Source: a virus (lineage: Duplodnaviria > Heunggongvirae > Uroviricota > Caudoviricetes). From it: a stretch of 64,000 bases of DNA. The number at the start of each line of letters is the position of its first letter. The stretch's first letter is position 1. Shown here in pieces: positions 6,118 to 18,016 of the stretch. Both the position numbers and the translations under genes were made by a program. The notes under the pieces are model-generated. The model was not told the origin of the DNA, searched no databases, and was given only the letters and a program-made list of their open reading frames with translations. Where the stretch lies: IMG/VR virus record IMGVR_UViG_3300021388_000002; one strand, written 5' to 3'.

Positions 6118-6132
6118 GTCTCCAGGCCTGAT

Positions 6133-6149: not shown

Positions 6150-6168
6150 TTACGCGATTCGCGTATTG

Positions 6169-6207
6169 TGGCCCCGGCGGGACTCGAACCCGCACACCCG
6201 GCTTAGG
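6169..6207 (-). pseudogene. 3' half of split tRNA-Arg(CCT)
   Basis: CCTAA GCCGG GTGT GCGGG TTCGAGT CCCGC CGGGGCC A; acceptor strand matches the 5' half at 6712-6744. Confidence 0.85.
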
Positions 6208-6279
6208 TTGGCCCGGCGGGACTCGAACCCGCACGCACGACTTAGGGGGTCGCCGCTCTATCCTCTGAGCTACGAGCCA
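6208..6279 (-). tRNA. tRNA-Arg(CCT), nested copy, C33
   Basis: Cloverleaf, loop CC CCT AA, U1-A72; overlapped by the endonuclease 3' end. Confidence 0.8.
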
Positions 6280-6688
6280 TTGGGTCTAGCAGGTATGCCG
6301 CAGCGTCCCTAGTACCTAGAGACTGGTTATTGCGGGCAGGCTGCAGTCTAAGGGCGACCGTGCGCCTGTAACCAGCTACATCTTCAATAGGGATCAGATA
6401 GACCTGGCTTAGAGCGGCTAGATAAACCCCGAAAAGATCAACTTGGCCCTCGTAACACTTACGCGGCGATCCGGGCCCCGAACTGGAGACATTGAACTCT
6501 AGCGCCGAACCGTCCCTCACCAGGCGTGCTGTTTTGCACTGAACCCGCTTGAACTGGCCGCTCGACTCAATGACCAGGTCATACCGCGTAACCCCAAATG
6601 GCACGAGCACGTTGTAGCCAGCATGCAGCAAGACCGAGAGAATAGCGCCTTCAGTCCGTGCACCCTTCTCATTGGTAGTGAGGGCCAT
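6242..6688 (-). CDS. PD-(D/E)XK endonuclease, I-Ssp6803I-like
   Basis: KGARTE...YDLVI...RVQCKT...YEGQVDLFGVY; stop codon lies in the anticodon loop of the nested tRNA. Confidence 0.85.
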   Translation of the reverse strand: MALTTNEKGARTEGAILSVLLHAGYNVLVPFGVTRYDLVIESSGQFKRVQCKTARLVRDGSALEFNVSSSGPGSPRKCYEGQVDLFGVYLAALSQVYLIPIEDVAGYRRTVALRLQPARNNQSLGTRDAAAYLLDPMARSSEDRAATP

Positions 6689-6695
6689 GGTTTAT

Positions 6696-6701
6696 AGACT
6701 A
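6696..6701 (-). promoter_or_regulatory. -10 box TAGTCT for the endonuclease (leaderless)
   Basis: 7 nt before ATG 6688. Confidence 0.5.
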
Positions 6702-6711
6702 CCAGCTAGCT

Positions 6712-6744
6712 GGCCGTGGCTCTGATCCATTGAGCTACGGGGCC
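6712..6744 (-). pseudogene. 5' half of split tRNA-Arg(CCT)
   Basis: GGCCCCG TA GCTC AATGGATCA GAGC C ACGGC C, then unrelated sequence. Confidence 0.85.
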
Positions 6745-6935
6745 AGAAGTCCCAGCTTGTCCCCGCTTGTCCCAGCGTCTTGCGGGCCAGGCCGCCACGG
6801 TGTGAAAGTGAACGTGTGCAGCCGGTCTGCTCCGGATCTGTGCGGATAGTGAAACGGTCCCGCCCTGTGGTCCCGGTAACCGGGATTCCTGGCAAATCAG
6901 GGCGGGACCAAAATTCCGGGCGCCCGGAAAATCAG

Positions 6936-7008
6936 AGGCGGGGCGGGGAATCGAACCCCGGTGCGGCGCTTTGCAGGCGCCTGCCTATCCAGACTCGGCC
7001 ACACCGCC
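6936..7008 (-). tRNA. tRNA-Cys(GCA)
   Basis: Cloverleaf, loop CT GCA AA, U73. Confidence 0.9.
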
Positions 7009-7013
7009 AGGAA

Positions 7014-7141
7014 GTGAGAGCAGCAGAGAAGTCCCGTCTAACCTGCCGCTTTGCCGCCGGAGACACCCGGCTTTCGGTATAACCGCCGCTGAGGTACCCG
7101 TCACAGCCCTCTACACATGACGGCAGGCTCGCTGCTCTCAC
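7014..7141 (-). ncRNA. Structured spacer RNA, unknown class
   Basis: Perfect 11-bp terminal stem GTGAGAGCAGC/GCTGCTCTCAC plus inner CCTGCCG/CGGCAGG; fills the Arg-Cys spacer. Confidence 0.5.
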
Positions 7142-7143
7142 CG

Positions 7144-7215
7144 TGCGCCCAGCGGGACTCGAACCCACATCGCCGGCTCCGGAGGCCGGTGCCCTATCCA
7201 TTGAACGATGGGCGC
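7144..7215 (-). tRNA. tRNA-Arg(CCG)
   Basis: Cloverleaf, CCGGC CT CCG GA GCCGG. Confidence 0.92.
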
Positions 7216-7265
7216 GTAAAATCGTGCTATTGCTGGCGGCCCTCCCACGGGACTGGCCGCCGTTC

Positions 7266-7634
7266 TCATGCTCTCTCAGCCGCCAGGTCGTGCTGACCGG
7301 GCCGCCGCCGGGGCACGTGCAGGGCCAGGATGCCGTGCTCATTCAGCAGGTCGCACACGTCGGCCCGGTCGTCGTAGTAGACCCCGATGCCCAGCGACAG
7401 GCACAGCTCCAGCTTGAGCGCGGGCGACTCGCGCGGGTGCGCGAACCAGACCTCGTGCACGGCGGTGCAGGTGATCCCGCGGGCGGCCACATCAGCGGCG
7501 ACCGTGCCACGGGTCCGGTCCCCGACCCCGGAGATGACGTAGACCTCGTGCCCGGCCGCCATCAGCGCGGCGGACAGGTCGCGGAAGTACGGCCAGTGGC
7601 TGCAGACCTGCCAGTAGTCCAGGCCGATCCGCAT
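7266..7634 (-). CDS. Small HAD-like hypothetical protein
   Basis: MRIGLDYW motif-I-like start, YYDDR motif-IV-like, ATG 7634. Confidence 0.6.
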   Translation of the reverse strand: MRIGLDYWQVCSHWPYFRDLSAALMAAGHEVYVISGVGDRTRGTVAADVAARGITCTAVHEVWFAHPRESPALKLELCLSLGIGVYYDDRADVCDLLNEHGILALHVPRRRPGQHDLAAERA

Positions 7635-7650
7635 CTTCTTCTCGTTCACG

Positions 7651-7733
7651 TGGCAGGACCAGGATTTGAACCTGGGAAGCCGAAGCAACCGTTTTACAGA
7701 CGGCCCCTTTTAGCCAGACTCGGGCACCCTGCC
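7651..7733 (-). tRNA. tRNA-Tyr(GTA)
   Basis: Long variable arm, loop CT GTA AA. Confidence 0.9.
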
Positions 7734-7734
7734 T

Positions 7735-7811
7735 TGGGGTGGCTGACCGGACTCGAACCGGCATCCTCTGGACCCACAACCCAGCGCCATAGCCTTTCAG
7801 CCACAGCCACC
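7735..7811 (-). tRNA. tRNA-His(GTG)
   Basis: Encoded G-1, C73 and CCA; loop TT GTG GG. Confidence 0.92.
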
Positions 7812-7812
7812 G

Positions 7813-7885
7813 TGGACGTACCTGGGATCGAACCAGGGACCTTCGCTGTGTGAGAGCGCTGCTCGTTCCGCTGAGCTACACGTCC
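7813..7885 (-). tRNA. tRNA-Val(CAC)
   Basis: Cloverleaf, loop CT CAC AC. Confidence 0.9.
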
Positions 7886-7951
7886 GTGCTGGCAAAACCA
7901 GCTGAATAACAGTTAATTACCGACGAACTTCAGCTAATTAACTGCCATACG

Positions 7952-8023
7952 CGCGCCCAGGAGGACTCGAACCCCCATTGGCGGCTCCGTAGGCCGCAGC
8001 CCTATCCGTTGGACGATGGGCGC
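7952..8023 (-). tRNA. tRNA-Arg(ACG)
   Basis: GCGGC CT ACG GA GCCGC. Confidence 0.92.
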
Positions 8024-8033
8024 TTGTCTTGCG

Positions 8034-8105
8034 TGGGCCCGGGAGGGATCGAACCACCGGCCTCCCCCGTGTCAGGGGGGTGCTCTCCCGCTGAGCTACG
8101 AGCCC
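8034..8105 (-). tRNA. tRNA-Val(GAC)
   Basis: CCCCC CT GAC AC GGGGG. Confidence 0.9.
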
Positions 8106-8227
8106 TTGTGTCCCATCCGCCTGGCTAGTGGCAGCTTCGCCCCGTGACCGGTGGCCACCCGCTCAAAATGGCTGGCGCGCCTTGGCAGCCGGGAGCCAGG
8201 GGGCAAGCAGGAGGGACTGCCTGCTAG

Positions 8228-8302
8228 CGGGGGCGACGGGATTTGAACCCGCGACGTCCAGATCGACAATCTGGCGCTCTGACCGGACTGAGCTACGTCC
8301 CC
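8228..8302 (-). tRNA. tRNA-Asp(GTC)
   Basis: CCAGA TT GTC GA TCTGG, G73. Confidence 0.92.
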
Positions 8303-8381
8303 TGGGGGTAGTGCGGTCGTGCTGATGATGCTAGCCGTGTGAGGCCACGTGGCTATCCGTGCAGTGGCTTGCGGCGCCTCG

Positions 8382-8453
8382 CTCCCCTGGCCAGACTCGA
8401 ACTGGAACCTTCCGGTTAACAGCCGGGCGCTCTGCCAATTGAGCTACAGGGGA
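8382..8453 (-). tRNA. tRNA-Asn(GTT)
   Basis: U1-A72, loop CT GTT AA. Confidence 0.92.
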
Positions 8454-9094
8454 TCGTTTATGAAGGCGGCCATCCGGGCGGGCTGCCGGGAGGGCCGGGC
8501 CAGGATAATGCTCACCATGGCAGCGTTGGCGGCGAGCAGGTACCCCGGGTAGATGAGCCCGGCCGCACTGGGCTGATGCACCAGGACCGCAGCCAGGGTC
8601 AGGGTGCCGCCGAGGCCGAACCAGGCGAAACCCGCCCAGGGCTCCCCGCCGGGATCAGCCCAGCCGTGCCGGTATGTCGGGATGAACGCGGCCAGGTCGG
8701 TCAGCGCCGAGATTGTGATGGCCGCCCAGACAGGCAGTGCCCGCGGGCTGGCGATAGCGATCGCCAGCATCACGATCCCGGCGCCAGCCAGTACGGTGCA
8801 CACGGCATCCAGGCGGCTGAATTCCCGGGTCCCGTACATCCAGGCCACGCAGAGCACGATCATGCAGGCAGCCGCATCCAGGCCGGTATAGAAGCCGCTG
8901 GCCAGCTGCCGGGGTGCTACCGCCAGCTCCCCGGCCGTCCCGGTCGCCGCGGCTGCGGACCACAGCGACCAGGACGATAGCCGCAGGTCAGCGCGCTCGT
9001 CCGGTTTCCGGCTGTCCCGGATCATGATCCAGCTGCCATACAGTGTGGCTGCTGCCGCCATGGCTGCCAGGATGATCGCTGCGGCTCCCGGCAT
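8444..9094 (-). CDS. Multi-pass membrane protein
   Basis: About 6-7 hydrophobic helices; stop falls inside the 5' end of tRNA-Asn. Confidence 0.7.
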   Translation of the reverse strand: MPGAAAIILAAMAAAATLYGSWIMIRDSRKPDERADLRLSSWSLWSAAAATGTAGELAVAPRQLASGFYTGLDAAACMIVLCVAWMYGTREFSRLDAVCTVLAGAGIVMLAIAIASPRALPVWAAITISALTDLAAFIPTYRHGWADPGGEPWAGFAWFGLGGTLTLAAVLVHQPSAAGLIYPGYLLAANAAMVSIILARPSRQPARMAAFINDPL

Positions 9095-9099
9095 CGCTG

Positions 9100-9495
9100 C
9101 TACGCCGCCTGTGTCTCAGCGGCCTGCCGGAACGACTCCAGCTCTGCGCTTGTGAACGGGTGTTCCAGGTATCCCGAATCGGACCATTCCTGGTACTCTA
9201 GCTCGCTGCTGTTGCTGCTGAGCCTGGTGACTGCGTAACGCACGTGGTAACCCGAATCCGTGCTGAGGGTGAAGGCCCCCGGCGTCAGCTCCGTCAGCTC
9301 ATAGCAGGTGACGGACCCCGATCTGGCCCGGGACGTATAGACCGTGCCAATCCTGGGTGGCCATTCGCTGGCGGTCTCGGATTCCACAAAATCCAGCCAG
9401 GAGGGCGTGTTCTCCGGGTTGAGCGCAAATGACAGGACATCCACTGCCGGGAGGCTGATGATGATGCGAAGCCGCTGGCCTGCCCTGGGCTTCAC
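9100..9495 (-). CDS. SRPBCC/polyketide-cyclase-like protein
   Basis: LSFALNPENTPSW...YHVRY..ELEYQEW pattern; coupled to neighbours. Confidence 0.6.
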   Translation of the reverse strand: MKPRAGQRLRIIISLPAVDVLSFALNPENTPSWLDFVESETASEWPPRIGTVYTSRARSGSVTCYELTELTPGAFTLSTDSGYHVRYAVTRLSSNSSELEYQEWSDSGYLEHPFTSAELESFRQAAETQAA

Positions 9496-10310
9496 GAGGA
9501 CGTCAGCCCCAGGTGGTCAGACAGGTCGGCCGGGCGGCTGGATTCCGGGCTGCTGCGGGTGTAGTAGTTGCAGGCCATGACAACCCGGAGCTGCGGGTAC
9601 CCGCTGGGTGGTCTCGGTGCCCGCACGCGCCGGATGAGCTGGTCCACGTAATGGGTATGGCCGCGACCATCAAAAGCCAGGAAATGCCCGGCTTGCGGGT
9701 AGATCACAATGGGGGCCTCTTCCACGGCGGCCAGGCCGCGCACGTCGCCCTGGCCGGCTATGCGCAGCGCCCCGCCGCAGCCGGCCGGATGGGAGGTGAA
9801 GTACAGCAGGCCCTGAACGGGCTGGGAATCGACGTGCAGCTCATACCGTGGGCCTTCTGGCTGCACGTTGAGCACAGCCCCGTACCGGATGTCCTGCGCG
9901 ACGCCCAGTTCCTCGGTGCTGATCTCCTGGGCCAGCTGCTTCAGCGGGCCGCGGTACAGGGTGTCAGCCCAGGGCAGCTGGCGGGCCAGGACGTTCCCGG
10001 GCACGACGTAAGTATCCAGCTGGAGAGCCTTGTCGTCCTCACGTGAGGTTACCGAGGTAGGCGTTATCACCTGGTGCACAACCGCAGCGGGATCGGCGGC
10101 CACAGCCAGCACCTGGCGCTGCCAGCCCGCAGGCAAGAGCGATGTCACGTCCCAGTCCCGCCAGCTGAACCGGGACGTCAGGACGGGTGCCGGGCGATGA
10201 CCAAGCAGCCAGTTCTGGCACGGGCTGGGATGAACCAGCCCTCCCTGGGAGCCGAGCGTGAACGGGACGCCGCATTCAGGGCAGGTACCAAGCCGAGATC
10301 GCGTCTTCAC
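9492..10310 (-). CDS. 2OG-Fe(II) dioxygenase-like protein with N-terminal Cys knuckle
   Basis: YELHVD (HxD), GGAL, HTHYV (distal His), terminal R; GGAGG SD. Confidence 0.7.
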   Translation of the reverse strand: MKTRSRLGTCPECGVPFTLGSQGGLVHPSPCQNWLLGHRPAPVLTSRFSWRDWDVTSLLPAGWQRQVLAVAADPAAVVHQVITPTSVTSREDDKALQLDTYVVPGNVLARQLPWADTLYRGPLKQLAQEISTEELGVAQDIRYGAVLNVQPEGPRYELHVDSQPVQGLLYFTSHPAGCGGALRIAGQGDVRGLAAVEEAPIVIYPQAGHFLAFDGRGHTHYVDQLIRRVRAPRPPSGYPQLRVVMACNYYTRSSPESSRPADLSDHLGLTSS

Positions 10311-10360
10311 TGGTTACCTCCTGTGCCTCACCGATTCCGTAAAGTCATCACCGTAACTCA

Positions 10361-10468
10361 TCAGGACCCGAGCCGCCCTGCCACCGCCTGCTCGGCGATC
10401 CGCCACAGCGGCTCGGTATCGAGCAGCAGCCCATCCATGTCAGCGAGCACGGCAAACTCAGCCATCAT
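10361..10468 (-). pseudogene. N-terminal fragment of a HAD phosphatase
   Basis: VLADMDGLLLDTEPLW motif I, then a stop after about 35 aa. Confidence 0.6.
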
Positions 10469-10583
10469 TACCGCCATTTCCGCCCGGCACTCCCTCCGGG
10501 CTCCCGCCTGTCTCCTGATCGCATCAGGCTTACCGTAACCCGTACGTGATCTTGAGGACAAGGCGGGGCGAAGTGATCACTCT

Positions 10584-10660
10584 TGGTAGCGGGGGCAGGA
10601 TTTGAACCTGCGGCCTCTGGGTTATGAGCCCAGTGTGCTGCCGAACTGCACCACCCCGCG
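10584..10660 (-). tRNA. Initiator tRNA-fMet(CAT)
   Basis: C1-U72 mismatch, GGG/CCC in anticodon stem, encoded CCA. Confidence 0.93.
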
Positions 10661-10661
10661 G

Positions 10662-10748
10662 TCGCGGTGACGGGAATCGAACCCGTGCGGTTTCACCCTA
10701 CGCGCTTGAAAGGCGCGCGGCCCGTTAGCCATCAGGGCCCCCACCGCG
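10662..10748 (-). tRNA. Atypical tRNA with TTC (Glu) anticodon and long variable arm
   Basis: 5-bp D stem GGCCC/GGGCC, 6-bp anticodon stem, loop CT TTC AA, about 13-nt variable region. Confidence 0.7.
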
Positions 10749-10755
10749 CTGACCG

Positions 10756-10830
10756 CGTCCCTGGCGGGCTTTGAACCCGCGTCACCGCCTTGAGAGGACG
10801 GCGTCCTGAGCCTGACTAGACGACAGGGAC
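10756..10830 (-). tRNA. tRNA-Glu(CTC)
   Basis: TCGTCTAG D arm, loop CT CTC AA. Confidence 0.9.
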
Positions 10831-11055
10831 CTGGATACTGCTGCTGAAGCATCGGATAGTAGTTACCTGTGCACGGAGGTGGACAGTTGCTAGCAGCAGA
10901 GTTACGGTGCCCTTACTGTCCGCAACAGAGGAAGGGGCCTCCATGGATTTCGTGACTTACCGGTTCACGACCTACCGGTTCTGACGCCCGGCCCCCGCTG
11001 GGGCAACCCCCCGTAACCACAGGAGCCAGGTCTGCTGCCCGGGACCTGGCTCCTG

Positions 11056-11128
11056 TGCGCCCGGCAGGATTTGAACCCGCGACCATCTGCTTAGAGGGCA
11101 GCCGCTCTGTCCGCTGAACTACGGGCGC
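11056..11128 (-). tRNA. tRNA-Arg(TCT), C33
   Basis: CTGC/GCAG stem closes the 7-nt loop CC TCT AA. Confidence 0.85.
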
Positions 11129-11143
11129 CGGTACAGTGCAGGC

Positions 11144-11374
11144 GTGGCCATCGACCAGGGAATTCTCCGGCAGCTCGCCGAGGCCGACATCGACGCCGTG
11201 CCGGCCGGCGACGGCAGGCTCCTGACCCTGACGCACCGCCCGACCGGGATCACCCTGGAGCGGCCGGTGTTCGCTGACGCGCTGAACGTGAGTCACGGCA
11301 TCGGGGCCTTGCTGACCGAGGCGGGCAAGACCGGGTGGGCCGCCAGGGACTCGAACCCTGAACGTGCAACTTAA
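11144..11374 (+). CDS. Small hypothetical protein, antisense to the tRNA array
   Basis: GC3-rich codons; 3' end overlaps tRNA-Lys. Confidence 0.4.
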   Translation: MAIDQGILRQLAEADIDAVPAGDGRLLTLTHRPTGITLERPVFADALNVSHGIGALLTEAGKTGWAARDSNPERAT

Positions 11375-11407
11375 AAGGATGCTGCTCTGCCATTGAGCTA
11401 GCGGCCC
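11336..11407 (-). tRNA. tRNA-Lys(TTT)
   Basis: Cloverleaf, loop CT TTT AA. Confidence 0.9.
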
Positions 11408-11408
11408 G

Positions 11409-11448
11409 TGGGCCGGGCGGGGCTTGAACCCGCGACCCCCGTCTTAGG
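11409..11448 (-). pseudogene. 3' half of split tRNA (anticodon uncertain, Lys-like body)
   Basis: (CC)TAA GACGG GGGTC GCGGG TTCAAGC CCCGC CCGGCCC A; pairs with the 5' half at 11949-11980. Confidence 0.8.
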
Positions 11449-11522
11449 TGGCACGGGTGGGACTTGAACCCACGTACGGCCGATTATGAGTCGGCTGCTT
11501 GGACCAGCTCAGCTACCGCGCC
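11449..11522 (-). tRNA. tRNA-CAT (Met or Ile2), nested copy
   Basis: GCCGA CT CAT AA TCGGC; HNH stop lies in its anticodon loop. Confidence 0.85.
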
Positions 11523-11933
11523 TCGGCCGAACTGGACATCCCGGGCACACTTAATAGAGCAAGAGGACGGATTGCCGCCCTTGACCAGGTGCGTCTGCCT
11601 GCGCAGCCGCTCGAAAGATTTACCGCACCCGGGGCAGACCAGCATAACTACAGCCGCTGGTTTATGCCCCTTCCTGATGTTGGCTGCTCGTGCCAGAGAC
11701 TGGATGTTCGCCGGATCATCATTAGACGGATCGTCGTCTATATGATCAGCGTCCACCTCCTGGGCTGGAATAGCGCCAAGCCGGATTGACAGCAGGTAAC
11801 GAGCGAAGCTCATCGTTGTCCGGTGATGTGGGCTGGTGAGAACAACGATCTTCCTGTTCTGCTTCTGGTCCAGATAGGGCCCATATACCGTGTACGCAGT
11901 AAACGGGGCTGGATGGGGCAGAAGGCTGGCCAC
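11484..11933 (-). CDS. HNH endonuclease with C-terminal Cys motifs
   Basis: VDADHIDDDPSNDDPANIQ HNH core, CPGC and CSIKC. Confidence 0.85.
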   Translation of the reverse strand: MASLLPHPAPFTAYTVYGPYLDQKQNRKIVVLTSPHHRTTMSFARYLLSIRLGAIPAQEVDADHIDDDPSNDDPANIQSLARAANIRKGHKPAAVVMLVCPGCGKSFERLRRQTHLVKGGNPSSCSIKCARDVQFGRGAVAELVQAADS

Positions 11934-11939
11934 GCGATC

Positions 11940-11945
11940 ATTATA
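11940..11945 (-). promoter_or_regulatory. -10 box TATAAT for the HNH (leaderless)
   Basis: Consensus hexamer 6 nt before GTG 11933. Confidence 0.65.
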
Positions 11946-11948
11946 CGT

Positions 11949-11980
11949 GACGTCACTCTGACCAGCTGAGTTACCGGCCC
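11949..11980 (-). pseudogene. 5' half of split tRNA
   Basis: GGGCCGG TA ACTC AGCTGGTCA GAGT G ACGTC. Confidence 0.8.
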
Positions 11981-11985
11981 GTGCG

Positions 11986-12057
11986 TGGCGGAAGGTGGGA
12001 TCGAACCACCGGCCTCTCCCTTATGAGGGGATCGCTCTGCCCCTGAGCTATACCGCC
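11986..12057 (-). tRNA. tRNA-CAT (Met or Ile2)
   Basis: TCCC CT CAT AA GGGA. Confidence 0.88.
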
Positions 12058-12061
12058 GTGG

Positions 12062-12135
12062 TGGGCGAGGGAGGATTTGAACCTCCGACCTTTTCCTTAT
12101 CAGGGAACTGCGAGAACCGGCTACGCTGCTCGCCC
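12062..12135 (-). tRNA. tRNA-Ile(GAT)
   Basis: Loop CT GAT AA. Confidence 0.88.
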
Positions 12136-12146
12136 ATGGTGCTGCG

Positions 12147-12234
12147 CGGAGGAGGTGGGGATCGAACCCACACGGGAGTTACCCCTGACCGTTTTCGGGA
12201 CGGTATCCGGCGCCAGCCCTCGGATGGCCCCTCC
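12147..12234 (-). tRNA. tRNA-Ser(CGA), C33
   Basis: GGAGG acceptor, long variable arm, ACCGT CC CGA AA ACGGT, G73. Confidence 0.85.
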
Positions 12235-12312
12235 AGGTGAAACAGGCAGTGCTGGCAAGGGCGGGTCTCCGACCGCGCGCACTTACATGCCAGCACCAGG
12301 TTCAGGATAAAG

Positions 12313-12399
12313 CGGAGGATGTGAGATTTGAACTCACGAGGGTGTTACCCCAACGCGCTTTCCGGGCGCGCGCCATAGGCCGGACTAGGCGAATCCTCC
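12313..12399 (-). tRNA. tRNA-Ser(GGA), C33
   Basis: CGCGC CC GGA AA GCGCG, long variable arm. Confidence 0.88.
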
Positions 12400-12403
12400 C
12401 GGT

Positions 12404-12751
12404 CTAGCTGAGCCACCAGCGGTACCAGCGCCAGATCACCCAGGCCGCAACCAGCCCGAAGACGCGAACCCTGCCGCCGATCATCCAGATGATGGCCAGG
12501 CTCCCGGCGATGGTGATCCAGCTGCTCAGCTTCTGCCAGCGCCAGCCGGGCAGCCGCTCCAGCTTGCGGACCTGGCCCGTCCAGGTGTTGACCGCACCGC
12601 GCTTGCGCCAGATCCGGAAATGCAGGTGAGCGCTGAGCCGGCGGTCCTGGTCAGACCAGGTGCCCTTGCCGGCGAGCCAGTGCCCGGTGCGCACGCGCAG
12701 GTTGTGCTGCGTGGCGGTACGCGGCGGCTCACCCCAGGACCGTCGCGGCAC
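12404..12751 (-). CDS. Trp-rich small membrane protein
   Basis: C-terminal hydrophobic helices; fills the Ser-Ser spacer. Confidence 0.5.
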   Translation of the reverse strand: MPRRSWGEPPRTATQHNLRVRTGHWLAGKGTWSDQDRRLSAHLHFRIWRKRGAVNTWTGQVRKLERLPGWRWQKLSSWITIAGSLAIIWMIGGRVRVFGLVAAWVIWRWYRWWLS

Positions 12752-12776
12752 ATCCGGGTGATACCCGCCAGGAGCG

Positions 12777-12865
12777 CGGAGGATACAGGATTTGAACCTG
12801 TGAGGGACGCGATGCCCAACCTCATTAGCAGTGAGGCGCCATAGACCGGACTAGGCGAATCCTCC
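12777..12865 (-). tRNA. tRNA-Ser(GCT)
   Basis: CCTCA CT GCT AA TGAGG. Confidence 0.92.
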
Positions 12866-12879
12866 TTGGCCGTGCTCAG

Positions 12880-12964
12880 TGTCCGAGGAGAGATTTGAAC
12901 TCTCACGCTCCGTGGGGAGCACCAGGGCCTGAACCTGGCGTGTCTGCCGTTCCACCACCCGGAC
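12880..12964 (-). tRNA. tRNA-Leu(CAG)
   Basis: CCAGG TT CAG GC CCTGG, long variable arm. Confidence 0.92.
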
Positions 12965-13066
12965 GGGGGAGACCACATTGCCGGTTTTCGCTGACGGTTG
13001 TGGCGGATGCCGCATGAGGTTCAGTCAGGCGGTCCAGCGTCAGGTCAAGACAGGATGTGATCTCAG

Positions 13067-13139
13067 AGTGGGTGACGGGGGTCGAACCCGCGGCCTCTAC
13101 CTTGGCAAGGTAGCGCGCTGCCAGCTGCGCTACACCCAC
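13067..13139 (-). tRNA. tRNA-Gly(GCC)
   Basis: CTACC TT GCC AA GGTAG, U73. Confidence 0.92.
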
Positions 13140-13149
13140 ATGTACTGCG

Positions 13150-13189
13150 AGCCCCACAGCGGGATCGAACCGCTGACCTTCGCCTTACG
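13150..13189 (-). pseudogene. 3' half of split tRNA-Thr(CGT)
   Basis: CGT AA GGCGA AGGTC AGCGG TTCGATC CCGCT GTGGGGC T. Confidence 0.88.
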
Positions 13190-13261
13190 AGCCTGCTCGG
13201 AGGATCGAACTCCGACTATTTCCTTACCAAGGAGGCGTGCTGCCATTGTCACTAAGCAGGC
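13190..13261 (-). tRNA. tRNA-Thr(GGT), nested copy
   Basis: GCCTGCT/AGCAGGC acceptor, loop TT GGT AA; anticodon stem has mismatches. Confidence 0.78.
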
Positions 13262-13662
13262 GTGTTCAGCTCATACTGCTCGGCCAGCCTGATCCCCTTC
13301 TGCTGGTTGTTCCTGGCCGGCTCCAGCCTGAGCGATCCGAGACGGCTTCCCACGTCCTCGACCGGCACCAGGTAGACCTTGGTGTTCTGCGGGCAGTAAA
13401 CGCCGAAGTACTCAGCTTCTCCCCGGTAAGGCCGGGTGCTGCCGCCGCGGTGAGCGTGCGAGCTGGCTGCGTTGAAATCTATGCGGCCATCTCGCATCCA
13501 GCCCGTTTTGCACTGGATGCGCAGGAACTTACCCCCATCGTCCACCACCATGTCGTAGCGACGGCCGTTCCCGAAAGGGATCAGTACGCTGTCGTAGACC
13601 TGGAGAAGGGCTGCCATGACGATGGCTTCGGTCCGATCGCCGATGCTGTGTGTATTAGGCAC
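13252..13662 (-). CDS. PD-(D/E)XK endonuclease, I-Ssp6803I-like
   Basis: IGDRTE...RYDMVVD...RIQCKT...Y.GEAEYFGVY; stop inside the nested tRNA-Thr. Confidence 0.88.
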   Translation of the reverse strand: MPNTHSIGDRTEAIVMAALLQVYDSVLIPFGNGRRYDMVVDDGGKFLRIQCKTGWMRDGRIDFNAASSHAHRGGSTRPYRGEAEYFGVYCPQNTKVYLVPVEDVGSRLGSLRLEPARNNQQKGIRLAEQYELNTPA

Positions 13663-13668
13663 ACCATC

Positions 13669-13674
13669 ATCTTA
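13669..13674 (-). promoter_or_regulatory. -10 box TAAGAT for the endonuclease (leaderless)
   Basis: 6 nt before GTG 13662. Confidence 0.55.
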
Positions 13675-13677
13675 CAC

Positions 13678-13709
13678 AGGCGACGCTCTGCGGGCTGAGC
13701 TAGCGGGGC
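13678..13709 (-). pseudogene. 5' half of split tRNA-Thr(CGT)
   Basis: GCCCCGC TA GCTC AGCCCGCA GAGC G TCGCC T. Confidence 0.88.
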
Positions 13710-13813
13710 GGGAAGGCTGCCGCTGAGTATCTGGGACAGCCTGTATCAGATGACGCAGCTTCTGTGCGTCAGGTGGGCCAGCCCGGCGGGCCGGCAGCCA
13801 GTGAACTAGAGGT

Positions 13814-14269
13814 ATGCGAGCTTCCCCCGGAGACGTCTTCGCGGCCCTGTTCGCCGCGCACCAGGCGGGCGATCACTGGGCCCAGACCTCAGCGCAGGCC
13901 ACCACCAAGGGCCAGCCTGGTGCGCGGGGCCGCCGGGCCTGCGCGGCGCATGTCGCGACGCTGACCGCGGGCAAGGCCGCCGCCCTGGCCGCGCTGCAGC
14001 TGTCCGGGCGCCAGATCAGGCCCGGCCGGGCGGTGATAGCCCTGGCCGCTGACGCCGCCTCGCATTACCTGGCGGACCGGCGCAGCTCTGAGCCGCTGAC
14101 CGGGCTGGCCCGGCTGGCGCACCTGGCCGGGCGGGGCGAGTTCTGGGCACTGGGCCAGCCGCGGCCCGGCCGGGACGACAACCCCGTGCTCGGGACCGGC
14201 AGTTACGCGCTGGATCAGGCGTTCCACATCGGGTGCCTGTGGGCAGCGTCCGCCTGGATGGCATGCTAG
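13814..14269 (+). CDS. DUF3307-like membrane protein
   Basis: HQAGDHWAQT, HVATL, SHYLADRR, LDQAFH His/Asp motifs. Confidence 0.75.
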   Translation: MRASPGDVFAALFAAHQAGDHWAQTSAQATTKGQPGARGRRACAAHVATLTAGKAAALAALQLSGRQIRPGRAVIALAADAASHYLADRRSSEPLTGLARLAHLAGRGEFWALGQPRPGRDDNPVLGTGSYALDQAFHIGCLWAASAWMAC

Positions 14270-14344
14270 CTGGGGTCTGAGGGCTCGAACCTCACGCCTC
14301 CGGGACCAAGGCCCGGCGCTCTGCCAGCGATGAGCTACACCCCA
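14270..14344 (-). tRNA. tRNA-Gln(TTG), C33
   Basis: U1-A72, G73, CCGGG CC TTG GT CCCGG. Confidence 0.85.
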
Positions 14345-14348
14345 CCAG

Positions 14349-14423
14349 AGCCGCCTGCCGGGCTTGAACCGGCCACCTGCTGATTACAAGTCAGCCGCTC
14401 TGCCAGCGATGAGCTAAGGCGGC
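14349..14423 (-). tRNA. tRNA-Thr(TGT)
   Basis: GCTGA CT TGT AA TCAGC. Confidence 0.92.
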
Positions 14424-14773
14424 ACCGTCTTGTGCCCGGGGCGCAGGAAAACCCGGGCCTTTGCGGCTCCGGGCTCCTGCGTTCGTGACTGTCAGGCGTG
14501 GTAAAACATCAGGTCGGTTTCGGTGGTAACCATGACCGCCTCCTCCCGTCAGTAACCATTGGTAGTGGAACCGTAACTCAGAAACAGGTAACTGAAAGGG
14601 TAGTTCTGTCTTACCCAGGACCACAGGGGCCGCAGGTGATCTCGCTGCCGAGGGGCTGGCACATGGAACAGGATCAGGGGACTCCGGCCGCGCGCGCCGT
14701 TATGAGCGAGGTATCCCTGACCGGGCCGGACGGGCGCCTTCGCTCCCCGTTCCCGGCGTCGTGACCGTCCTGC

Positions 14774-14852
<79 letters not shown>

Positions 14853-14859
<7 letters not shown>

Positions 14860-14917
14860 TCGAACGGGGCACCTGCTCATTACGAGTGAGCTGTTCTTCC
14901 GGCTGAACTACCGGGGC
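14853..14917 (-). pseudogene. Truncated tRNA-Thr(CGT) lacking the 3' acceptor strand, fused into tRNA-Leu(GAG)
   Basis: GCCCCGG, D arm, GCTCA CT CGT AA TGAGC, then a T arm whose last 7 nt are the Leu 5' end. Confidence 0.8.
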
Positions 14918-15025
14918 AGCAGCAGCCTGCGAGACCAGGGTCGCAAACTCCTGGCACACCGCACAGGCGTCCCTGTTCCCGGTCCCGCCAGGTAATGCCC
15001 GCGTAGACCGGTCTCGGCTGCCTAG

Positions 15026-15102
15026 CTGCGGTGCCTGGAATCGAACCAGGGTTATCTCCGGGTCCAGAGCCCGGCGGGTTTGCCAGCGTCCCCCACACCG
15101 CA
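15026..15102 (-). tRNA. tRNA-Gln(CTG)
   Basis: CCGGG CT CTG GA CCCGG, U1-A72. Confidence 0.88.
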
Positions 15103-15119
15103 TCGTGAAGCAAAAACCG

Positions 15120-15202
15120 TGGGCGAGGAGGGAGTTGAACCCTCACGCCGGTTAAGGCACTGGTACTTGAGGCCAGCGCGTCTGCCGTTCCGCCACCCGC
15201 CC
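15120..15202 (-). tRNA. tRNA-Leu(CAA)
   Basis: Loop CT CAA GT, long variable arm. Confidence 0.9.
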
Positions 15203-15206
15203 GGGT

Positions 15207-16172
15207 CTAGCACCGGCCCTGGTAGGCGCCCGCCAGGAACGTCGTCCAGGCGTCCCAGTCGGTGCCGTCATGAGACAGCTCGATCGCGGCCCCGGCGTTG
15301 CCCAGCGAGGCGTAGGTGGACAGCGCCCCGTGGTTGGGATTGATCTGCCAGTACCCGCGCTCGCCCACACCGCCGGTTGCGAACTGATTGCCACCAGATT
15401 CGGCCTGGGCGATCTCAGCCGCCATGAACGCCTCGTCCGGGGCGCCGCCCGCCTGGTCCCATAGCGCCTCCAGCCCGGCGCAGGACAGCGTGCCGGACAG
15501 CGCGGTCATGGTGCGCGCCGCAGTGGCGGCCAGGGCAGCCGGGACCAGGGCCGGGGTGGCGTCACCCGGGATGGCCAGCACCTCGCCCGCCATGATCAGG
15601 CTGGGATTGGCGATGACCGCGCGGTTGGCGTCCCAGATCCGGTGCCAGGCTGCCGCGCTGCCCAGTGTCTTCAGCGCGATCGCGGACAGCGTGTCACCCG
15701 GCTGGACGGTGTAGTGCCGGCTGCCCGGGGCCGCCTCGTGGTGCACGACCAGGGCGTCCGTGGTGATGCGGTCCGCCGGGATGTGCGGCGGGAGCGGCGT
15801 GGCGTATATCCGCCAGTCCTGCACCACCTGCTCGGCGTAGGGCTCATCCAGCGCCGGGGTAACCGGGTCCGTCACGGGCGGCGGGGCGAAACTGGCCAGC
15901 TGTGCGGTGATCTGGCCGCCAGGCTGTGCCGGGACCTGCTGGCTCCAGACGGCTGGCGCTGCCACCGGGGTGAAGACGGCCATGGCCGGGGACTGAGGGG
16001 CCAGGAGAGCACCCGCGGCCAGCGCGGCCGGAGCTGCCTTGACCGCCGCGCCCTGGGCCATGGCCTGCGCAGCTGTGGGAGCTGCATGCTGCGGCTGGCT
16101 GTACGGGGCCCTGCGGTGCCTGCCGGGGCTCACGGATGCTCTCCTGACCGGCGGCCGGAGGGGGAGGGACAT
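15207..16172 (-). CDS. LysM + lysozyme/transglycosylase-like protein
   Basis: YTVQPGDTLSAIA LysM; IAQAESGGN...GYWQIN catalytic-type motif. Confidence 0.85.
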   Translation of the reverse strand: MSLPLRPPVRRASVSPGRHRRAPYSQPQHAAPTAAQAMAQGAAVKAAPAALAAGALLAPQSPAMAVFTPVAAPAVWSQQVPAQPGGQITAQLASFAPPPVTDPVTPALDEPYAEQVVQDWRIYATPLPPHIPADRITTDALVVHHEAAPGSRHYTVQPGDTLSAIALKTLGSAAAWHRIWDANRAVIANPSLIMAGEVLAIPGDATPALVPAALAATAARTMTALSGTLSCAGLEALWDQAGGAPDEAFMAAEIAQAESGGNQFATGGVGERGYWQINPNHGALSTYASLGNAGAAIELSHDGTDWDAWTTFLAGAYQGRC

Positions 16173-16255
16173 AAATGGCCGCCTGAACGGGTCACGAGCA
16201 GATCATGAGGGCCGTTCAGGCCAGGCCGGGAGCGTAAGAACCCGGAAAGGTCTTG

Positions 16256-16330
16256 TGCGCCGGGAGAGATTTGAACTCCCGTCCATCTGATTAAGGGTCA
16301 GACGCTCTACCAGGCTGAGCTTACCGGCGC
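16256..16330 (-). tRNA. tRNA-Lys(CTT), C33
   Basis: TCTGA CC CTT AA TCAGA; 3-nt acceptor-D linker. Confidence 0.87.
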
Positions 16331-16341
16331 GTAGTACACAG

Positions 16342-16414
<73 letters not shown>

Positions 16415-16623
16415 GAGGTCCCGGGGCCGTGCCGGTCCAGAGCCTGCCCCAGCCGCTGACCGTGTGCGTCACGGCGCTAGCTGAGCAGGGTGCCGACACC
16501 GTTGTGAGGTGCCCCGGGAGGCATGAGACCCGGACCCCGGCCGAGGTCAGGCTTTACCGGGGCAGCGCTACCCTCCCGGTCACTGGCTCCCATTCACGGG
16601 GCCTGCACCAGCGTCATGCCTAG

Positions 16624-16695
16624 TGGGACCTGGAGATTCTGAGACTCCGACCTACGGTATTTCACACCGTCGCTCTGCCGCTGAGCTAAGGCCCC
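16624..16695 (-). tRNA. tRNA-Phe(GAA) with non-canonical T loop
   Basis: ACGGT GT GAA AT ACCGT; T arm GGAG-TCTCAGAAT-CTCC lacks TTC. Confidence 0.72.
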
Positions 16696-16789
16696 ATGGA
16701 TTTTCCGTTAGCGGAGCTAATGACTGCTGTCCCCGCTTGTGTTAGCCTCGCCGTAACCCGCACATATCGTCCAGTTACGGAATGTGATA

Positions 16790-18016
16790 ATGGCCCCGGT
16801 TACCGCTCCTGCCCGGCCCGCTCGTGTCACCTACCGGGACGTCTTCGCAGTCCGGGAGTTCACCGTGCTGTGGGCGGCCCAGCTGGCCTCGATCGCCGGG
16901 GACCAGTTCGCCCGGATCGCCCTGACGGTACTGGTTTATGACCGGACCCGGAGCGGGCTGCTGGCCGCGGCCACCTTCACCGCGTCCATGCTGCCTATGT
17001 GCCTGGGCGGTATCGGCTTGAGCTGGCTGGCTGACCGCTATCCCCGACGCACCGTGATGGTGGCCTGCGACGCCGTCAGTTTCGTGCTCGTGCTGATCAT
17101 GGCCATCCGCGGGATGCCGCTGGCGGTGCTGGTGGCCCTGCTGGCTGCGGTGTCGCTGGTGTCGGCCCCGTTCGCCTCAGCGCGGGGAGCCGCCAACCGG
17201 GACGTGCTCGGCGCGGAGGCGTACCCGCTCGGCATGGCGGTTACCCTGTCCACCTACCAGGCCGGCCAGGTGGCTGGGTTCGCGGTGGGCGGGGTCCTGA
17301 CCGGGCTGGCCGGGCCACGCGGGGCGCTGCTCGCCGACGCGGCCACGTTCGCCGCCTCGGCGGCACTGATCCTGGCCGGGGTCCGGAGCCGCCCGGCAGG
17401 TAACCCGGCAGCCCAGCTGGAGGGCTCCCAGCTGCTGACCGGGCTGCGGGCCGTGCTCAGCAGCCGGGTTGCGCGGCTGTCCCTGCTGGCCGGGTGGCTG
17501 CCCGCATTTGTCGCGGTCACAGACGGGATCGCCGTGCCGCTGGCGCACTCGCTGGGCGGCGGGCCCGTCACCGCCGGGTGCCTGCTCGCTGCTACTGCCG
17601 CCGGGGTGACCGCCGGGCTGCTGCTATGGCCCCGGCTGGTGCCTGCCACCCGTGGCACCCGCCTGGCTGTGCTGCTCGCCGGGATATCCGCTGCCGTGCT
17701 GGCCGGGTTCGCCGGGCGGCCACCGCTGGCCGGGGCACTGGCCCTGCTGGCGGTTTCCGGGGCTTTCACCTGCTACATGACCTCAGCCAACGCGGTGTTC
17801 GCGGAAGCCGTGCCGGCCGAGCACCTGGGCGCCGCGTTTGGTGTCGGCAACGCCGGGATCATGGCCGGGCAGTCGCTGGCCATCGTGGCGGCCGGGGCCA
17901 TGCTCACCTGGCTCACCCCGCCTGCTGTCATCGCGGTCTGGGGCGGCCTCGGGGTTCTCGCCGCACTGGCGCTGGCCGGGCCGTGGCACCGCCAGCTGGG
18001 TGCCGGCACTGCCTGA
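16790..18016 (+). CDS. MFS transporter
   Basis: About 12 TM helices, motif A-like LADRYPRRTVMV. Confidence 0.88.
   Translation: MAPVTAPARPARVTYRDVFAVREFTVLWAAQLASIAGDQFARIALTVLVYDRTRSGLLAAATFTASMLPMCLGGIGLSWLADRYPRRTVMVACDAVSFVLVLIMAIRGMPLAVLVALLAAVSLVSAPFASARGAANRDVLGAEAYPLGMAVTLSTYQAGQVAGFAVGGVLTGLAGPRGALLADAATFAASAALILAGVRSRPAGNPAAQLEGSQLLTGLRAVLSSRVARLSLLAGWLPAFVAVTDGIAVPLAHSLGGGPVTAGCLLAATAAGVTAGLLLWPRLVPATRGTRLAVLLAGISAAVLAGFAGRPPLAGALALLAVSGAFTCYMTSANAVFAEAVPAEHLGAAFGVGNAGIMAGQSLAIVAAGAMLTWLTPPAVIAVWGGLGVLAALALAGPWHRQLGAGTA

Follow-up and report, generated by a model that had tools for sequence, protein, structure and literature searches.

A tRNA gene, most likely of the CAT/TAT (Met/Ile) class, in the genome of an uncultured tailed phage appears to have been entered at its anticodon loop by an intron-less homing-endonuclease cassette that brings a complete spare tRNA gene with it; we put the probability of this reading at roughly 0.6. 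The cassette (cassette 3) and the two halves of the older gene that enclose it occupy 11409-11980 of the window, i.e. the whole 64,000-nucleotide stretch of viral DNA that was analysed, and consist of the following features.

11980-11949, minus strand: 5' half of the outer tRNA gene (positions 1-31; 32 nt), from sequence reading and an nhmmer 5'-half profile
11934-11948, minus strand: left end of the cassette with ACG, the -10 box TATAAT and a 6-nt spacer, from sequence reading
11933-11484, minus strand: HNH endonuclease ORF of 149 aa with a GTG start, from the ORF list, profile matches and a structural model
11522-11447, minus strand: intact inner tRNA-Met(CAT), from ARAGORN and the Rfam tRNA family (63.9 bits)
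11446-11409, minus strand: 3' half of the outer tRNA gene (38 nt), from sequence reading and an nhmmer 3'-half profile

Structure of the split gene and its insert

The outer 5' half reads GGGCCGG TA ACTC AGCTGGTCA GAGT G ACGTC and thus holds the acceptor strand GGGCCGG, the D arm ACTC/GAGT and the 5' anticodon-stem strand ACGTC. The 3' half begins with a loop remnant TAA (11446-11444) and continues through GACGG (the 3' anticodon-stem strand), GGGTC (the variable loop) and GCGGG TTCAAGC CCCGC (the T arm) to the acceptor strand CCGGCCC and the discriminator A (11409), with 1 nt separating it from an adjoining tRNA-Lys(TTT). Joined to each other, the halves pair at 7/7 positions in the acceptor stem, 4/4 in the D stem, 5/5 in the T stem and 4/5 in the anticodon stem (A27-G43 mismatch), and ARAGORN recognizes them with any 7-nt loop as a 75-nt cloverleaf tRNA. 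In a search of ~330 kb with profiles of tRNA halves, nhmmer flags each as an orphan (5' half at 11952-11979, E 0.11; 3' half at 11408-11440, E 0.0011). The split architecture put forward in the original prediction was verified to the base, as was its register in the window, where N73 of the inner tRNA occupies position 33 of the outer loop. The same split gene and cassette are present in L001 and L002, which come from separate samples (Logan SRR29078191 and SRR29078296, independent of each other), and are therefore not an assembly artefact.

The insert between the outer halves is 502 nt long (minus strand), of which only 15 nt belong to neither the ORF nor the inner tRNA. At its left end, ACG (11948-11946), TATAAT (11945-11940) and GATCGC (11939-11934) follow one another on the minus strand and lead directly to the GTG at 11933. 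At the other end the last 39 nt of the ORF overlap the inner tRNA, such that the stop codon TAA (11486-11484) forms anticodon-loop positions 36-38 of that tRNA. The inner tRNA-Met has an unusual D stem, GCTG/AGC, and its discriminator A73 at 11449 is followed by CC (11448-11447).

TATAAT occurs once in the 64-kb window with 0.9 occurrences expected by chance, a count that is not significant alone; TATAAT followed by 4-6 nt and a start codon recurs in related loci (L002, L003, L004, L005, L022, L023, L033, L044 and L050). Within 11300-12150 the -10 box was found by itself, with no -35 element, full sigma-70 promoter or terminator. Since no Shine-Dalgarno sequence precedes the HNH start codon and the -10 box lies 6 nt from it, TATAAT plus 6 nt is probably the promoter of a leaderless mRNA.

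The HNH nuclease

The ORF product is, by prediction from profiles, alignment and model, an HNH endonuclease with the catalytic beta-beta-alpha-metal motif. The window protein itself scores 18.5 bits against Pfam PF13392 (HNH_3), under the cut-off of 24.8, and the same profile matches 11 of 12 members of the family (best E 2.4e-8); among PHROGs the window protein matches phrog_14913 (E 5.5e-17). D63, H64, N76, N85 and four cysteines are invariant in the family alignment. The AlphaFold2 model (pLDDT 82.6) has a strand-strand-helix at residues 60-89, and its best PDB match is I-HmuI (Z 7.0 over 85 residues), with I-PpoI at Z 5. As the original prediction had it, this nuclease is unrelated to those that the window's other two cassettes encode, which are PD-(D/E)XK enzymes (PF11645; E 1e-26 and 5e-35).

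The base composition of the cassette is foreign to the phage: the HNH ORF has a GC content of 57.7% and a GC3 of 63%, against 69.6% GC for the window and a GC3 near 90% for the resident genes. A DNA-level search found no close relatives among cultured phages, where protein identity is just 34-40%, and 185,579 species genomes yielded only one match, on a MAG contig. Distant homologues are present in Acinetobacter phage AM24 and E. coli phage Bas93.

No group I or other intron ribozyme family was found in an Rfam 15 scan (E up to 1) of 5500-20500. A weak twister-sister match (24.1 bits, gathering score 34) is best read as a junction of tRNA pieces, as is a YrlA-like match at 11383-11465, similar matches being found at other tRNA-tRNA junctions. 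A YrlA-like RNA is also seen at 5743-5867, beside a gene at 3933-5711 that encodes a Ro60/TROVE protein.

The same design in related loci

Of 70 relatives' loci collected, 42 are distinct, and they link the family to phage tRNA genes. Half of these (21/42) have a tRNA that starts within -60 to +100 nt of the HNH stop: 11 Met-CAT, 2 Ile-TAT, 2 Ile-GAT, 3 Arg-TCT, 1 Arg-CCT and 2 Leu-CAA. An orphan 5' half lies upstream of the nuclease gene in 11-13 of the 42 and an orphan 3' half is present in about 10. The half-ORF-tRNA-half pattern for which a survey of tRNA arrays had been suggested recurs in full in five other distinct loci (L002, L023, L044, L052 and L053), where the outer acceptor strands pair at 6/7 positions or better; six further loci show a 5' half, ORF and tRNA with no 3' half. 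No fewer than 12 distinct loci of this one nuclease family have the break at the anticodon loop, and in each of them the -10 box abuts the 5' stem strand. About half of the family loci lack orphan halves; they lie between intact tRNAs, as several do (L027, L030, L032 and L048), or at a distance from tRNA genes.

The original prediction that two nuclease families share one insertion geometry is borne out by this recurrence together with the PD-(D/E)XK cassettes of the window: independent nuclease families have arrived at one geometry, and a mechanism common to them may lie behind this. The N73=N33 register is no general rule and holds only in the window, where 6 nt lie between inner N73 and the outer 3' stem, as compared with 4, 8 or 11 nt in the other nested loci. 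Two apparently simple splits with no inner tRNA (L005 and L053) both proved to contain a degenerate or unusual inner tRNA-like piece. A chimeric origin of the tRNA after the ORF, by reuse of the 3' half of the target, was likewise considered as a general rule and is true for L004 alone among six loci tested; there the 3' acceptor strand of the post-ORF tRNA is matched at 7/7 positions by the orphan, as against 6/7 by its own 5' strand (background frequency 0.012). An array without the cassette was sought by extension of L071, whose contig ends about 110 nt past Lys-TTT.

These loci also bear on a different account, in which the HNH gene is free-standing in the array and does not recognise tRNA genes, and the halves are scars of illegitimate or unequal recombination among closely packed similar tRNA genes after a break from any source, e.g. 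host anticodon-region nucleases or replication. The loci without orphan halves, the six with a 5' and no 3' orphan, and the junction registers that vary among loci are all in keeping with this account, and one-sided homologous repair would give just the acceptor pairing seen in L004. However, a scar does not account well for a break that falls at the anticodon loop in locus after locus with the -10 box always against the 5' stem strand, nor for the same geometry around unrelated nucleases in the window; moreover the chimeric signature is confined to one of the six loci tested, and the base composition is foreign to the phage. We hold this account to be rather unlikely, and favor the insertion of a homing cassette.

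One block in different tRNA genes

The segment TATAAT-HNH-tRNA-Met (GCTG type) aligns across the window, L002, L003, L022 and L023. Homology spans TATAAT to the end of the inner tRNA, and the flanks are three different tRNA genes:

Flank type O, acceptor GGGCCGG: window and L002
Flank type M1, acceptor GGCGGTA, directly after Ile-GAT: L003 and L022
Third flank type: L023

The GCTG-type tRNA-Met was found only directly 3' of the HNH gene. It is 96% identical between the window and L002, where neighbouring tRNAs are 63-85% and the ORF DNA 67% identical. The M1 gene that follows Ile-GAT is intact in the window (11985-12057) and in L002; in L003 and L022 it is reduced to a 5' half that is followed by the cassette, with no 3' half. 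The syntenic sites thus show presence and absence both for M1 (intact in window and L002, split in L003 and L022) and for the GGGCCGG gene (an intact CAT tRNA in L004, split in the window and L002), among genomes that are not close relatives (67% ORF DNA identity); the loci compared include no near-identical pair that differs solely by the cassette. The state of L003 and L022 could also derive from that of the window by deletion between tRNA paralogues, with no separate insertion.

In the sister phage L002 the outer gene has decayed, its 3' half having lost the anticodon-stem strand while the inner tRNA is conserved as above. The outer 5' half is 81% identical between the window and L002, as conserved as working neighbours, which fits poorly with simple decay. 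The bases of the outer acceptor, D stem and T stem are unchanged between the two, and differences are found in the D loop, T loop and anticodon arm. By our reading of the alignments the working neighbour tRNAs differ at no more than about 4-6 of the corresponding 32 stem positions, and the idea that the outer stems are more conserved than those neighbours was dropped, the difference not being significant.

Identity of the outer tRNA

The original prediction held that inner and outer tRNAs are of different isotypes, with a hint that the outer might be Lys. Only TAA (positions 36-38) of the outer anticodon loop survives in the window, and several lines of comparison point instead to a most likely assignment of the outer gene to the CAT/TAT (Met/Ile) class rather than to Lys or Arg. 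When the outer body was compared with 411 tRNAs the best match was Met(CAT) of L108, followed by Ile(TAT) and, in third place, Arg(TCT); the outer body is also 84% identical to a mycobacteriophage tRNA-Lys. Viral tRNAs that match the pattern of the outer 5' half are CAT in 13 of 14 cases and TAT in the other. The empty-site allele that had been sought is apparently that of L004, where an intact tRNA with acceptor GGGCCGG and anticodon CAT occupies the syntenic place before a spacer and Lys-TTT. Where the outer loop is readable in relatives it is CATAA or CTCATAA. A readable outer anticodon agrees with the inner one: the pairs are CAT/CAT in L023 and L052, and CCT/CCT and CGT/GGT in the other window cassettes. 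Most likely, then, the inner and outer tRNAs of cassette 3 share an anticodon class (CAT/TAT), contrary to the isotype claim, and Lys is less likely than CAT/TAT. An Arg(CCT) reading of the junction CC-TAA is unlikely, as the outer D loop has GGTCA and all Arg tRNAs of the arrays have GGA (A20); the CC of this junction more plausibly represents inner-tRNA positions 74-75 than part of the outer anticodon.

Possible roles of the outer halves

It is conceivable that the outer halves are kept for an RNA or expression function, which would complement rather than displace the homing-cassette reading. The 5' half and -10 box might serve as an expression platform, or the outer acceptor and T-arm helices might form a tRNA-like handle across a 572-nt transcript, by which the cassette RNA would be cleanly excised from the array precursor by RNase P and RNase Z. 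In the predicted structure of 11980-11409, MFE and centroid alike, the outer 7-bp acceptor helix closes the whole RNA beside the outer T arm (z -3.06), although folding predictions for an RNA of 572 nt carry little weight. The unchanged stem bases in L002 would agree with such a function, yet the few changes in neighbouring tRNAs deprive this of significance; and orphan 5' halves persist in 11-13 loci, including those without a 3' half, but the six loci that lack a 3' half altogether rule out a general need for the long-range helix. From the internal -10 box, furthermore, one would expect an mRNA whose start lies downstream of the 5' half. A retained function of this kind seems to us quite improbable.

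Less probable still is that the outer tRNA is still being made, as a split tRNA or by way of a protein-dependent intron in which processing of the inner tRNA is followed by re-joining of the halves by an RNA ligase. The halves in the window are still cloverleaf-competent, and RNA-quality-control parts are encoded nearby (the Ro60/TROVE protein and YrlA-like RNA mentioned above). Against this, the Rfam scan gave no ribozyme, too few loop bases are left for an anticodon loop (TAA alone on the 3' side), L002 has no outer 3' anticodon-stem strand, and L003 and L022 have no 3' half. No tRNA splicing endonuclease is known from bacteria and their phages, and the ends that RNase Z leaves are not those on which RtcB acts. 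A broader proposal, which we rate as very improbable, would make the outer helices a handle for excision of the nuclease-mRNA-plus-tRNA unit by RNase P and RNase Z or for ligase re-joining, the cassette a protein-dependent, ribozyme-free "intron containing tRNA", and the HNH and PD-(D/E)XK cassettes together an undescribed class of mobile elements that pays with a spare gene instead of with splicing.

A model for the cassette

In the homing model that we prefer, the mobile unit would be ~500 bp in length and consist of a -10 promoter, an I-HmuI-like HNH gene and a complete tRNA-Met gene that is fused to it with no spacer, conserved bases of this tRNA supplying the stop codon of the ORF. The nuclease would nick or cut CAT-type tRNA genes that are still uninterrupted, at a point near the anticodon loop; its targets would be paralogues or genes of co-infecting relatives. 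Repair would copy in the cassette, with the tRNA halves and the neighbouring array genes as homology. The interrupted allele would then be immune because its target site is split. There would be no splicing and the outer gene would be dead, a loss that the phage may tolerate since a functional CAT tRNA arrives with the cassette and the array has redundancy. The cleavage specificity of the HNH enzyme and homing itself are inferred here, and the cassette is probably selfish.

Some observations fit this model less readily. The half of the family loci that have no orphan halves suggests that the HNH enzyme need not target anticodon loops. The window holds three other CAT tRNAs with CTCATAA loops, so that an enzyme that reads the loop alone would cut its own genome. 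The entry into a loop of a block that ends exactly at a tRNA 3' end is not explained by the model.

Significance and relation to known systems

Homing endonuclease genes are thought to survive in essential genes only by means of self-splicing introns or inteins, or else to lie between genes. Cassette 3, which sits within a tRNA gene with no splicing device and with a complete tRNA that is most likely of the same anticodon class, would represent a third way to a harmless insertion. The HNH family repeats this design in unrelated phage tRNA arrays, and in one genome it is found beside PD-(D/E)XK cassettes; the design therefore looks like a general force on phage tRNA repertoires, one that acts by gene turnover, by duplication and by leaving pseudogene stumps. 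In annotation, such cassettes may be signalled by tRNA-gene stumps and by "extra" tRNAs within an array; their enzymes would be compact nucleases with tRNA-gene specificity.

The closest structural relative is I-HmuI (PDB 1U3E), likewise a phage-encoded HNH enzyme, from the SPO1-type group I introns of Bacillus phages, which nicks one strand. Its match to the model (rmsd 3.2 A) covers the N-terminal sheet and the HNH core, and a selfish, site-specific lifestyle would be common to both. I-HmuI, however, is encoded within a protein gene, in a self-splicing group I intron, whereas cassette 3 has no ribozyme and lies in a tRNA gene; the sequence identity is 11%, and the C-terminal half of the cassette-3 protein is a four-Cys module where I-HmuI has helical DNA-binding domains. 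The tRNA region of phage T5 also has HNH nickases, F-TflI, II and IV.

The group I intron of I-Ssp6803I occupies the anticodon loop of a cyanobacterial tRNA-fMet gene, i.e. one with a CAT anticodon, and so resembles cassette 3 in its insertion site. I-Ssp6803I (PF11645) belongs to the PD-(D/E)XK family of the two other window cassettes, in distinction to the HNH enzyme of cassette 3, and the damage that it causes is hidden by RNA self-splicing, whereas in cassette 3 it would be offset by a complete spare tRNA gene.

SegB of phage T4, a free-standing GIY-YIG homing endonuclease in a tRNA gene cluster, causes the tRNA region to be inherited preferentially when phages co-infect (PMC2330249), and a preference for cutting inside tRNA genes is attributed to it (PMC8421152). 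Like cassette 3, it is an intron-less homing endonuclease within a phage tRNA array; unlike it, SegB has another nuclease fold, and the segB gene is intergenic, splits no tRNA and carries no nested replacement tRNA. HNH genes have been described in tRNA arrays of mycobacteria, mycobacteriophages and cyanobacteria as the most widespread protein genes there, and have been proposed to shape tRNA repertoires and spread arrays (PMC5966550, PMC8421152). The passages searched in these two papers deal with adjacency only and contain no anticodon-loop splits or nested nuclease-plus-tRNA units, and the parts of the literature searched gave no paper that describes such a nested design.

The cassette finally has a counterpart of a different kind in integrase-driven elements, mobile elements that likewise sit in tRNA genes and supply sequence by which tRNA function is maintained. 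Those elements use site-specific recombinases, provide a substitute for the 3' part of the gene only and leave a direct repeat, whereas in cassette 3 the two halves enclose a nuclease gene together with a different tRNA gene in its entirety.

Anatomy of the split tRNA gene

Cassette 3 is a 502-nt insert that separates the two halves of an outer tRNA gene. Its architecture, predicted as 5' half, TATAAT, HNH ORF, tRNA-CAT and 3' half, proved correct in every detail by sequence, ARAGORN and Rfam:

11980-11949 (-), outer tRNA 5' half: GGGCCGG TA ACTC AGCTGGTCA GAGT G ACGTC
Cassette left end (-): ACG, TATAAT at 11945-11940, 6-nt spacer
11933-11484 (-), HNH ORF: 149 aa, GTG start
11522-11447 (-), intact inner tRNA-CAT: ARAGORN; Rfam 63.9 bits
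11446-11409 (-), outer tRNA 3' half: TAA GACGG GGGTC GCGGG TTCAAGC CCCGC CCGGCCC A

The first 39 nt of the inner tRNA double as the 3' end of the ORF, whose TAA stop occupies positions 36-38 in the inner anticodon loop. The inner A73 and CC directly precede the outer 3' half, placing the inner discriminator at outer position 33, as had been noted for the window. The outer halves pair at 7/7 positions of the acceptor stem and 4/5 of the anticodon stem, their joined sequence is called by ARAGORN as a 75-nt cloverleaf, and both are recognised as orphans by profiles of 179 tRNA halves.

A permissive Rfam scan of 5500-20500 found no group I or other intron family, only tRNAs and some weak tRNA-like matches, and the ORF and inner tRNA fill the insert except for 15 nt at its left end; a self-splicing intron was rejected on these grounds. 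A role of the outer halves at the RNA level has a small chance; consistent with it, the outer acceptor helix closes both the MFE and the centroid structure in the predicted fold of the whole 572-nt RNA.

The HNH protein and its expression

The HNH protein scores below threshold against Pfam HNH_3 (18.5 bits, cut-off 24.8), a profile matched by 11 of 12 aligned family members, and matches phrog_14913, HNH endonuclease, at 5.5e-17. Residues D63, H64, N76 and N85 and a C-terminal four-Cys module are invariant in the family alignment; the tail past this module is unconserved, being the translated sequence of whichever tRNA comes next. The AlphaFold2 model (pLDDT 82.6) has the phage homing endonuclease I-HmuI as its top structural match (Foldseek, probability 0.93; VIA Z 7.0 over 85 residues), followed in VIA by I-PpoI at Z 5. 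With a GC content of 57.7% and a GC3 of 63%, against 69.6% for the window and a GC3 near 90% for resident genes, the ORF is a compositional outlier, foreign to the phage.

At ten loci TATAAT (TATAAC in L003) stands within 0-3 nt of the 5' anticodon-stem strand, with the start codon 4-6 nt, mostly 6, past the box and no Shine-Dalgarno sequence; in L044 and L039 the promoter is a full one of the TTGACA type. TATAAT occurs once in the 64 kb, and no -35 element was found in the window. Because of the box-to-start spacing, cassette 3 is assigned a putative -10-only promoter and leaderless mRNA. Both -10-only promoters and leaderless mRNAs are common in Actinobacteria.

The two PD-(D/E)XK cassettes at 6169-6744 and 13150-13709 (-) each carry a TANNNT box 6-7 nt before the start codon (TAGTCT-7-ATG and TAAGAT-6-GTG). 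In the Thr cassette of this type GTAAG (outer positions 35-39) is present at both junctions and may stem from duplication of the target site or from microhomology.

Stop codons are drawn from conserved tRNA bases in close relatives too: U36-A37-A38 in the window and L002, U8-A9-G10 (TAG) in L003, L022 and L023, and a TAA at positions 8-10 in L004. Since these positions differ, a stop in the anticodon loop is just one of the forms that a general fusion of ORF and tRNA takes.

Distribution of split tRNA genes in the HNH family

Protein search, contig look-ups and scans of viral and metagenome contigs gave 70 loci with homologues (L numbers), falling into 42 distinct clusters. In 21/42 clusters a tRNA on the ORF strand begins between -60 and +100 nt relative to the stop codon (11 Met-CAT, 2 Ile-TAT, 2 Ile-GAT, 3 Arg-TCT, 1 Arg-CCT and 2 Leu-CAA), an orphan tRNA 5' half lies immediately 5' of the ORF in 11-13 of the 42, and an orphan 3' half lies 3' of it in about ten. 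The survey proposed in the original prediction found the full half-ORF-tRNA-half nesting again in L002, L023, L044, L052 and L053, the orphans of these five being complementary at 6-7 of 7 acceptor positions; six loci (L003, L004, L022, L033, L038 and L039) have the 5' half, ORF and tRNA with no 3' half. Thus the HNH family, too, builds such cassettes, and widely.

Among 185,579 species genomes the family has one match, on a MAG contig. Homologues in cultured phages are distant (34-40% identity), and no cultured phage searched at the DNA level is close to the window. In Acinetobacter phage AM24 the homologue, annotated as an HNH homing endonuclease, sits within a tRNA array. Escherichia phage AidaStucki_Bas93 (L091; PQ850593.1, 1119-1690) has an annotated HNH endonuclease, 36% identical to the query, whose gene begins inside tRNA 5'-half-like sequence; the anticodon-stem bases AGGAGG could be its ribosome-binding site. 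A perfect 20-bp inverted repeat after this gene encloses an Arg(TCT)-like anticodon arm and T arm. This cultured phage would allow the design to be tested. Unusual tRNA-like pieces that ARAGORN did not call lie past the HNH ORF in L005 (4420-4490; acceptor and CTGATAA loop without a D arm) and L053 (1445-1590; an Ile(TAT)-like gene with a long variable arm).

One element in several contexts

When the window is aligned with L002, L003, L022 and L023, an unbroken homologous block runs from TATAAT across the ORF and stops with the final base of the inner tRNA; its flanks come from three different tRNA genes. The split gene has the acceptor GGGCCGG in the window and L002 and is of a third type in L023; L003 and L022 have the 5' half of M1 (acceptor GGCGGTA), the gene directly after Ile-GAT, which is intact in the window (11985-12057) and in L002. 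L004 has its HNH paralogue elsewhere, upstream of Ile-GAT; the position corresponding to the window's split gene is taken by an intact CAT tRNA with the acceptor GGGCCGG, followed by a conserved spacer and Lys-TTT. The three flank types and the intact M1 and L004 genes thus make up a presence/absence polymorphism and show a single element in several settings, and the state of L003 and L022 could alternatively derive from that of the window through deletion between paralogues. The inner tRNA-Met has an unusual D stem, GCTG/AGC, found among more than 400 tRNAs of the fetched loci only directly after this HNH gene.

Nucleotide identity between the window and L002
Working neighbour tRNAs: 63-85%
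HNH ORF DNA: 67%
Inner tRNA (window 11447-11522; L002 1173-1247): 96%
Outer 5' half: 81%
Outer 3' half: 69%

Strong conservation argues that the inner tRNA is functional; its 96% identity reflects either unusually strong constraint or recent exchange of the tRNA alone. The outer gene of L002, judged from its sequence, cannot be functional because the anticodon-stem strand is missing from its 3' half. Homing into working alleles, either recent or repeated, may account for the well-kept 5' half, as may a role in expression.

Identity of the outer gene and the tRNA array

The loop remnant of the outer gene in the window is only TAA. Intact viral tRNAs matching its 5'-half pattern are CAT in 13/14 cases and TAT in 1/14, Met-CAT and Ile-TAT predominate among the canonical tRNAs that have the same T arm and acceptor 3' strand, and the readable outer loops of relatives are CATAA (L023) and CTCATAA (L052). 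The closest of 411 tRNAs to the outer body is a Met(CAT) gene of L108, ~84% identical outside the loop by hand count, followed by Ile(TAT) genes, with Arg-TCT third; the outer D loop lacks the GGA motif present in all Arg tRNAs of these arrays. The outer gene is probably a CAT/TAT tRNA, and the suggestion that inner and outer tRNAs are different isotypes is not supported. As to the empty-site allele and its anticodon, the intact L004 CAT gene fits this assignment, but the rank of Arg-TCT and an 84% identity of the outer body to a mycobacteriophage tRNA-Lys leave doubt. The window also has an initiator-type CAT tRNA (10584-10660), M1 and the inner tRNA, so the outer gene would be redundant.

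ARAGORN finds 38 genes in the minus-strand array. A further tRNA at 16624-16695 (-; Rfam 46.3 bits) was missed by ARAGORN, and 12148-12234 (-) matches the tRNA-Sec model (Rfam, 31.9 bits) at the place of tRNA-Ser(CGA) in relatives, which makes an array of 39 or more genes probable. At its end lies a Ro60/TROVE protein gene with a vWA domain (PF05731, PF25045; 3933-5711, -), adjoined by a YrlA-like Y RNA match (5743-5867, -) of 47.6 bits that does not reach the gathering score of 69; two further YrlA-like or tRNA-like matches lie between the Ala and Trp tRNAs (19257-19392, -). The conserved spacer preceding tRNA-Lys(TTT) in L002 (1282-1330), L004 (3565-3611) and L022 (1250-1298) contains a mini-ORF of ~9 codons (M..KQA.RI) and a GGAGG box. 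The window lacks this spacer, and its Lys-TTT begins 1 nt past the outer 3' half.

Mechanism and relation to known systems

Cassette 3 is best read, with a probability near 0.6, as an intron-less homing cassette with a spare tRNA. The HNH enzyme would cut CAT-type tRNA genes near the anticodon loop, and repair of the cut would copy the cassette into the tRNA gene. The analysis shows the cassette's anatomy, an insert without a ribozyme, split tRNA genes associated with the family as a whole, flanks that differ, a base composition foreign to the phage and, in a relative, a dead outer gene. The main rival, a recombination scar without relation to enzyme specificity, is less likely. The chimeric signature predicted by one-sided repair appears in L004, but not in the five other loci tested. 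At the right-side junctions 3-7 loop bases are retained and 4-11 nt separate the inner N73 from the outer stem; because the junctions vary, the insertions are not a single inherited event. The same range speaks against N73=N33 as a fixed register. Of the proposed convergence of two nuclease families, the shared geometry is real, and the isotype statement and register rule are not supported.

Full-text literature search, in the portions of text it returned, gave no account of a nuclease-plus-tRNA cassette splitting a tRNA gene. In the parts of the reports consulted, the protein genes met most often in tRNA arrays are HNH genes (PMC5966550, PMC8421152), and SegB of T4 is a homing endonuclease of the tRNA cluster (PMC2330249). 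The known kind behind the cassette is the free-standing homing endonuclease.
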